From a virus (Duplodnaviria > Caudoviricetes), in IMG/VR virus record IMGVR_UViG_3300003465_000373, positions 1 to 58,404 of that record: a stretch of DNA of 58,404 bases; one strand, 5' to 3'. Shown in pieces: positions 6,344 to 6,428 of the stretch. The notes under the pieces were generated by a model. That model had not been told where the DNA came from. It saw nothing but the letters and a program-made list of their open reading frames with translations, and did no database searches. Both the position numbers and the translations under genes were made by a program. Position 1 is the stretch's first letter; each line of letters begins with the position of its first letter.

Positions 6344-6428
6344 CTCCCCAGGAAGGGATCGAACCTTCGACACGCTGCTTAACATTGCTTGGTGAAAGGC
6401 AGCCGCTCTACCTCTGAGCTACCGGGGA
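6344..6428 (-). tRNA. tRNA-Asn(GTT) with 13-nt insertion in the anticodon loop
   Basis: GCTGC-CT[TTCACCAAGCAAT]GTTAA-GCAGC; rest is a canonical Asn body (TCCCCGG.../G73). Confidence 0.85.

Follow-up and report, generated by a model that had tools for sequence, protein, structure and literature searches.

An 85-nt gene on the minus strand of a T4-like phage contig (positions 6344-6428) has the body of a tRNA-Asn and carries 13 extra bases within its anticodon loop. We tentatively regard it as a spare copy of tRNA-Asn that was recently disrupted and is neither spliced nor able to decode, which is the most likely of the readings weighed below. The observation is real and fits a wider pattern of short anticodon-loop inserts in related phages, but the gene at 6344-6428 may simply be broken.

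The phage and the interrupted gene

The window, by which we mean the whole stretch of 58,404 bases that was analysed, is a complete IMG/VR virus record with an estimated completeness of 12%, its length being about one eighth of the phage genome. Among its genes are those for the T4-type major capsid protein Gp23 (E 4e-85), for a T4-type portal protein split by an intein and for a prohead protease; given these T4-like virion genes, the phage presumably infects bacteria. In IMG/VR 381 relatives of the capsid protein were found, of which 80 loci at 79–87% identity were retained and 25 examined. Relatives found in this way include G001 (532,729 bases, rated 100% complete), G002 (343 kb) and G003 (223 kb), while the nearest GenBank record is LR756511.1, an uncultured phage of 595 kb (75.6%). 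Since the capsid relatives include a complete genome of 533 kb, the gene at 6344-6428 comes from a widespread clade of T4-like phages of ~0.5 Mb. Nineteen additional clade records bearing the capsid gene hold 2 tRNAs in total and therefore offer no arrays for comparison. Syntenic loci were sought in IMG/VR with the neighbouring proteins P0001 and P0002 as probes, which returned no relatives, and a DNA search with window positions 5000-9000 against GenBank phages gave matches to tRNA-Pro only. Within the portal gene (52425-55004, minus strand) an intein splicing domain (PF14890, E 8.9e-11) lies ahead of the Portal_T4 domain. The same strand of the window carries an indoleamine 2,3-dioxygenase homologue (20436-21614; PF01231, E 2.5e-67) and an ADP-ribosylglycohydrolase (22193-23152; E 1.4e-34).

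ARAGORN finds 49 tRNA genes in the window, and 50 when introns are allowed for; every one lies on the minus strand, and 41 of the window's tRNA genes are confirmed by Rfam at the gathering score. The Rfam tRNA model (RF00005) spans 6344-6428 with 53.7 bits, against a cut-off of 29, and is matched over positions 1-71, which is the whole model. Read from 6428 to 6344, the gene has an acceptor stem TCCCCGG/CTGGGGA with T1-A72 and discriminator G, a D arm GCTC-AGAGGTA-GAGC, a variable region GTGTC and a T arm GAAGG-TTCGATC-CCTTC. The 5' strand of the anticodon stem, GCTGC (6399-6403), pairs perfectly with the 3' strand, GCAGC (6374-6378). The acceptor, D and T arms are intact, and the four intact stems are supported by Rfam, by the minimum free energy (MFE) cloverleaf and by alignment to phage tRNA-Asn. 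Cloverleaf, conserved tertiary positions, Asn-like body and discriminator G are all those of a tRNA-Asn. No secondary decay was detected in 6344-6428, with all stems paired and a score within the 30–69 bits of the window's normal tRNAs. A single-strand fold of the gene with ViennaRNA returned the cloverleaf with a 5-bp anticodon stem and, within the loop, only three weak pairs.

The anticodon loop (6379-6398) is 20 nt long and reads CTTTCACCAAGCAATGTTAA. When the gene is aligned with the tRNA-Asn of Caulobacter phage CcrBL9 (the D arm of which is near-identical), of Aeromonas phage phiA8-29 and of the window itself, a single gap of 13 columns results, corresponding to the extra bases TTCACCAAGCAAT at 6384-6396. 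Owing to flanking T's, the placements 6384-6396, 6385-6397 and 6386-6398 are equivalent and put the insert after position 33, 32 or 31, respectively. As encoded, the gene has no 7-nt loop with GTT at positions 34–36, the 13 extra nt standing ahead of GTT. Removing 13 nt in any of the placements leaves a 7-nt loop with GTT, which is CTGTTAA for the first two and ATGTTAA for the third. An earlier sequence-only reading had described a canonical tRNA-Asn with a 13-nt insert at 6384-6396, the removal of which gives CTGTTAA. Rfam, the fold and the alignment to uninterrupted orthologues confirm this description, which is here refined to three equivalent placements, two of them yielding CTGTTAA.

An intact second tRNA-Asn(GTT) is located at 13847-13919 on the minus strand (ARAGORN; Rfam 63.1 bits), 7.4 kb from the interrupted copy and rendering it redundant. 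With an essential element disrupted, namely the loop of 20 nt, and a functional paralogue at 13847-13919, the interrupted copy resembles a tRNA pseudogene in these two respects. It is a member of a co-directional gene string. Upstream lies an ORF of 129 aa (6432-6821, minus strand), Cys-rich and without a Pfam match, the stop codon of which is 3 nt ahead of the tRNA 5' end. No promoter-like site was found between window positions 5500 and 8000. The spacer between the gene and a tRNA-Glu(CTC) (6272-6336, minus strand) contains a T-arm-like segment and has a weak match to tRNA-Sec (16.2 bits, E 8.2); this segment may be a decayed tRNA fragment.

Comparison with homologues, as proposed by the sequence-only reading, yielded uninterrupted orthologues. 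The orthologue in G001 has an identical D arm and the loop CTGTTAA without an insert, and all three tRNA-Asn genes of LR756511.1 are likewise without it. A scan of GTDB, in which each prokaryotic species is represented by one genome and 0–30 extra bases were permitted, recovered an identical D-stem and anticodon arm in 11 tRNA-Asn genes (10 from Acidobacteriaceae-type MAGs and 1 from a Myxococcales MAG), and 11/11 are without an extra base. Among 50,697 GenBank phage records, the body gave full-length BLAST matches only to the tRNA-Asn of CcrBL9, in two records of that one phage. The 24-nt 5' part of the gene was found in 12 contigs from JGI metagenomes, none of them with an Asn gene (0/12); their anticodons are Thr (9), Val (1), Ala (1) and Gly (1). 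Scans of IMG/VR with an exact 39-mer and with two degenerate patterns for Asn genes with an insert each gave 0 matches, the gene's own record and near-identical ones possibly having been left out of them. It had been proposed that uniqueness of the insert to this assembly would refute the sequence-only reading. A second record bearing the insert was not found in scans that may be blind to near-identical records, so that the insert, seen in one record only, is apparently unique.

A source for the insert was sought within the window with a 15-mer allowing up to 3 mismatches, giving 3 matches where 2.05 were expected. The exact 13-mer has one occurrence in 1.48 Mb of compared loci, inside a protein ORF of G002 (L078:13656-13668). 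With the 15-mer matches near expectation and the sole exact 13-mer copy taken as chance, we rejected copying from elsewhere.

Inserts in other tRNA genes of the clade

The tRNA regions of the relatives were searched with intron-tolerant ARAGORN. Short anticodon-loop inserts are present in 1 of 50 tRNA genes in the window, at least 3 of 65 in G001, 1 of 12 in G002 and 1 of 62 in LR756511.1. None was found among the 14 tRNA genes of G003, or among the 51 of two array-bearing phages outside the clade. The clade's short inserts measure 10–21 nt, are unrelated in sequence and have no common sequence at their boundaries; each of those in the relatives is a singleton in sequence. The Lys-type gene of G001 is extended by 21 nt, which fold into a hairpin and pair with the anticodon, and it is the sole Lys-type gene of this complete genome. 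A CAU tRNA in G001 has 12 extra nt immediately before an intact CTCATAA. The homologous CAU tRNA of LR756511.1 is interrupted at the same stem-loop junction by 21 nt of unrelated sequence. In IMG/VR the arm of this CAU tRNA (GGGGA/TCCCT) is uninterrupted in 13 of 14 contigs, the fourteenth being G001. G001 further contains a loop of 18 nt in a gene with a G3:T70 acceptor and two genes with loops of ~36–40 nt, and the 10 extra nt of a Leu gene in G002 are perfectly complementary to its anticodon loop. Exact removal of the insert produces a 7-nt loop with an anticodon fitting the body in 5 of 6 short-insert genes. The bodies of the other insert-bearing genes are pristine, scoring 49–65 bits. The motif CCAAG, noticed post hoc, occurs in four of the clade's loop inserts, and the AAG within it pairs with the anticodon in the Lys-type gene.

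A second kind of insert is found at 13264-13390 (minus strand), where the anticodon stem of a tRNA body is interrupted by a conserved structured module of ~50 nt (core 13310-13355). Copies of the module occur in six tRNA bodies in two phages, five of them in G001 in differing bodies (L088:874-980, 4872-4971, 6212-6337 and 14780-14905; L089:14759-14889). The module consists of an A-rich leader, a covarying helix of 7 bp, an inner TCC-N4-GGA hairpin and a GGA-TTACA end, with the consensus core ..TCT-P1..TTGTCC-N4-GGAATG..P1'-GGA-TTACA, and is inserted in the 5' strand of the anticodon stem (29/30). Compensatory changes affect 3 pairs of the 7-bp helix, and 98% of its cells are paired compared with 85% in shuffles. 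Judged by eye, removal of the module leaves perfect anticodon arms with differing anticodons in five copies, the window copy with GTT among them. Rfam gave no match for the module, and a covariance model (R1) run over five full records recovered the six training copies only and nothing at 6344-6428. The ~50-nt inserts are clearly a selected family and look like a real intron-like one, and as a lead this family may be more important than the 13-nt insert.

The sequence-only reading had noted that an 8-mer of the 13-nt insert, CTTTCACC, recurs in this second RNA, which it placed at 13267. The 8-mer is indeed present, at 13346-13353, where it forms the variable 5' strand of the covarying helix and pairs with GAAGGA. 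The window contains it 3 times against 2.86 expected, and from these counts the proposed link is best read as chance. Local alignment of the loop with the window module scored 8, and shuffling gave p ~0.03, which as the lowest value among 36 comparisons is compatible with chance; for the 20-nt loop against the six modules, the best p was 0.03 and the remaining values exceeded 0.7. Because the module has a separate core, R1 has no match in the interrupted gene and the 8-mer is at chance level, the 13-nt and ~50-nt inserts are of different kinds. An origin of the 13 nt as a deletion remnant of the module at 13264-13390 was rejected as well, since the likeness ends at the 8-mer, the sites differ (loop versus stem 29/30) and R1 does not match.

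Several other tRNA genes are unusual. A tRNA-like gene of 128 nt (13573-13700, minus strand; fold z-score −3.05) has a normal acceptor, T arm and TAT anticodon arm and ~55 extra bases in the D-loop region. For two genes, at 7754-7826 and 13925-14000 (minus strand), ARAGORN gives no anticodon (‘tt’), and the anticodon loops seem to measure 6 nt or, if the stem is shortened, 8 nt. Five tRNAs of 75–76 nt on the minus strand of the window have the Leu anticodons CAA, CAG, TAG, GAG and TAA and are without the long variable arm (32490-32565, 32687-32762, 32767-32841, 33398-33473 and 33479-33554). They accompany three ordinary long-arm Leu tRNAs (22011, 28297 and 29477), and similar short ‘Leu’ tRNAs are present in G001, G002 and G003. 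G001 contains two adjacent tRNAs with CTA anticodons (amber readers; L094:1394-1541) and a 94-nt SeC-like TCA tRNA (L092:838-931), anticodons that hint at stop-codon reading in the clade. TAT tRNAs with a long extra arm (91–99 nt) occur in three unrelated array-bearing phages (L089:7217-7315 in G001, L146:7476-7566 in G033 and L147:7971-8062 in G025). On the complement of LR756511.1 two tRNA-like genes of 126–128 nt (L117:27133-27258 and 29310-29437) have the 12-mer AGCATACAAACA in common within their large inserts, which may represent a second lineage-specific insert family.

Splicing signals, enzymes and readings of the insert

At 13 nt the insert is too short for a group I or group II intron, as had been stated from the sequence: a group I catalytic core takes ~200 nt or more, the placements end in T, A and A and never in G, and no Rfam intron match was obtained in the window. 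The sequence-only reading had also seen no clear bulge-helix-bulge (BHB), and fold and inspection agree with it. Neither a BHB nor a relaxed BHB was found in the MFE or centroid structure of 6344-6428 or by inspection, no 4-bp helix with flanking 3-nt bulges being drawable, and the fold contains no anticodon-intron helix.

The same reading had suggested a search for ligation and splicing enzymes, which in the relatives gave a divided result: RtcB and the splicing endonuclease were not found, and RNA ligases and a kinase-like gene were. The splicing endonuclease (PF01974) was detected in 0/5 clade records (the window and G001–G004), the complete G001 included, in a search that was positive for 4 of 14 control genomes, these being the archaea. 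RtcB (PF01139) was likewise detected in 0/5 clade records, with 10 of 14 control genomes positive; a bacterial host could supply RtcB. RNA ligases of the PF09414 type number three in G001, two in G002 and one in G003, and one T4 Rnl1-type ligase (PF09511) is present, in G001. Two of the RNA ligase loci of G001 are 93567-94028 and 102443-102934. An AAA_33 kinase-like gene adjoins a PF09414 ligase in G001 (502315-502632 and 502941-503453) and in G003 (33251-36993), and the pair looks like a heal-and-seal RNA repair cassette. The presence of ligases and a kinase-like gene makes a heal-and-seal step conceivable. The pair in G001 (502315-503453) lies ~3 kb from the end of the tRNA array. Among 40 scanned of the window's 80 ORFs of at least 90 aa, no RNA ligase, kinase or nuclease domain was found.

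If the gene is a spare copy, its transcript would be cut from the co-directional tRNA/ORF string and its ends processed like those of any tRNA. From established tRNA knowledge, a nearly unpaired loop of 20 nt would be unable to present GTT to a codon or to asparaginyl-tRNA synthetase, and the RNA would be a non-decoding, tRNA-shaped by-product. The DNA-level process behind the clade's unrelated 10–21-nt loop inserts would also have made the 13-nt insert. The evidence on this reading is split. It is backed by the singleton status of the insert, the unstructured loop and the finding of no known splicing enzyme, as well as by redundancy, the intact tRNA-Asn 7.4 kb away being the ground for regarding the copy as dispensable and recently disrupted. 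The remnant at 6272-6336 hints at decay within the array. Against it stand the pristine tRNA bodies, the recurrence of inserts in the clade, the interruption of the sole Lys-type gene of G001, the selected second insert family, the heal-and-seal enzymes and the CAU junction common to two diverged phages. The CAU inserts in particular have a fixed position and a free sequence, which is the behaviour of protein-spliced tRNA introns and thus counts against a spare copy.

Possible, with a somewhat lower probability, is a short intron of a non-BHB kind, made up of the 13 nt and spliced by proteins. A phage or host endonuclease positioned by the tRNA body would cut on both sides, and a kinase-like enzyme and a ligase would seal the halves into tRNA-Asn(GTT). 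In a variant, the gene would encode a pro-tRNA, as put forward by the sequence-only reading, and this would be matured only while a host anticodon nuclease is active. Exact removal gives the canonical Asn loop of the orthologues and the body is pristine, both as expected of an intron. The recurrence of short inserts, 5 of 6 of them removable to a 7-nt loop with a fitting anticodon, points the same way, as do the junction common to the CAU tRNAs of G001 and LR756511.1 with unrelated insert sequences, the interrupted sole Lys-type gene, and the clade's RNA ligases with an adjoining AAA_33 kinase-like gene in G001 and G003. ‘Introns’ of unknown mechanism reported, in the available text, from tRNAs of Lak megaphages (PMC6784885) are also in its favour. 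However, the gene has neither a BHB nor an anticodon-intron helix, neither RtcB nor an EndA-type nuclease was detected in the five clade records, the clade's inserts have no common boundary sequence, and the 13-nt insert was seen in one record only. Splicing would moreover be unnecessary given the intact tRNA-Asn, and a ligase with a kinase is the standard T4-type tRNA repair set, not specific to splicing.

A broader proposal, which we consider rather unlikely, is that the clade splices bacterial-type tRNAs by an undescribed route. A nuclease that measures the tRNA body would excise both the short loop inserts and the ~50-nt stem insert, and a phage kinase and ligases would reseal the RNA, so that spare tRNAs are kept inactive or nuclease-proof until needed.

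By analogy with what has been proposed for the stable tRNA-like RNAs of T4 and T5, the RNA could also be kept unspliced as a non-decoding tRNA-shaped molecule that acts, for example, as a decoy or sponge and engages an anticodon nuclease of the host, a modification enzyme or a synthetase, although we judge this improbable. The intact acceptor and T arms and the elbow would give such an RNA stability and processing, its loop shows a Glu-like heptamer CTTTCAC together with the Asn segment T-GTT-AA, and at least three other aberrant tRNA-like genes are present in the window. Opposed to this are an insert conserved nowhere in the scans, a loop without a structure of its own and the identification of no partner protein. 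It is very unlikely that the insert arose through an error of assembly or sequencing in a single metagenomic contig. It is known from one record only, but a clean, non-repetitive insertion of 13 nt in an otherwise perfect gene is unusual as an assembler error, and comparable inserts occur in other tRNAs from independent assemblies of related phages.

Least credible of all is that the gene is a tRNA-Glu(TTC), the label given to 6344-6428 by ARAGORN in both modes, with an arm GCTGC-CTTTCAC-CAAGC and the other 18 nt assigned to a long variable region or, alternatively, to a 13-nt intron on the 3' side of the anticodon. The program agrees with itself and CTTTCAC is a well-formed 7-nt loop, yet the label arises because CT-TTC-AC beside the 5' stem strand is taken as the loop, which requires a stem paired at 3 of 5 positions, whereas GCTGC/GCAGC is perfect and is predicted in the MFE as well as the centroid fold. 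In alignment the body goes with tRNA-Asn, its D arm and acceptor are unlike those of three aligned tRNA-Glu of the window's four, the orthologues are tRNA-Asn, and whatever is inserted after CT yields some ‘anticodon’ at that place; ARAGORN thus mislabels an interrupted Asn gene as tRNA-Glu.

Comparison with known systems

Protein-spliced tRNA introns of archaea and eukaryotes are recognised by a BHB motif, cut by EndA/TSEN and joined by RtcB or Trl1, and in archaea introns of ~11–20 nt occur. The inserts described here resemble them in being short, in leaving a 7-nt loop upon removal and, in the CAU tRNA of the clade, in combining a fixed position with a free sequence. They differ in that the 13-nt insert has no BHB and lies at 31/32 to 33/34 instead of 37/38, in that no EndA or RtcB was found in the clade (0/5 records), and in the presumably bacterial host. 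To our knowledge, protein-dependent tRNA splicing is regarded as archaeal and eukaryal, and the only tRNA introns known from bacteria and their phages are self-splicing group I introns. The latter likewise occupy the anticodon loop of bacterial-type tRNAs, as far as the available text describes them (PMC3984707). Unlike them, the insert is with 13 nt too small for the core, ends in G in none of its placements and has no Rfam intron match.

In T4, tRNA-Lys is cut by the anticodon nuclease PrrC and then repaired by T4 Pnkp and Rnl1. The 33/34 placement of the insert coincides exactly with the site 5' of the wobble base at which PrrC-type nucleases cut. The clade has Rnl1-like and other RNA ligases together with a kinase-like gene. 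However, the T4 pathway reseals one cut and removes nothing, and we know of no description of 13 nt being excised by PrrC, Pnkp and Rnl1. T4 RNA C and D and the T5 tRNA-like RNAs are stable and conserved, with large structured inserts. Like these, the gene at 6344-6428 is tRNA-shaped, lies within a phage tRNA cluster and is non-decoding as encoded, but it departs from a normal tRNA by 13 unstructured bases only.

If the inserts are removed, this would represent a new RNA-processing activity in bacterial viruses and would tie the long-known tRNA repair kinase and ligase of phages either to everyday tRNA maturation or to a counter-defence directed at anticodon nucleases. Should the inserts stay in place, the consequence is more modest, namely that tRNA counts of huge phages include copies unable to decode.

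In the literature searched, short non-BHB inserts in phage tRNAs were undescribed apart from the Lak paper in its available text (PMC6784885). The available portion of PMC10747093 gives no description of such inserts, and the main text of the huge-phage survey behind LR756511.1 (PMC7162821), as far as available, makes no mention of introns or RNA ligases. Devoto et al. (2019, PMC6784885) describe ‘enigmatic’ introns in tRNA genes of Lak megaphages, for which no splicing mechanism is known. Lak belongs to another phage lineage, with 26% GC and an alternative code, and reportedly has the same introns in different cohorts, whereas the 13-nt insert was found once (PMC6784885, available text). Our gene shows an interrupted huge-phage tRNA with uninterrupted homologues; conservation of the insert across independent genomes was not seen, near-identical records possibly having been left out. 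Going by the available text, the Lak introns are nevertheless the closest published precedent for the 13-nt insert, since in both cases the phage is huge (~0.5 Mb), its tRNA genes number in the tens and include overlong ones, and homologues with and without an insert exist (PMC6784885).
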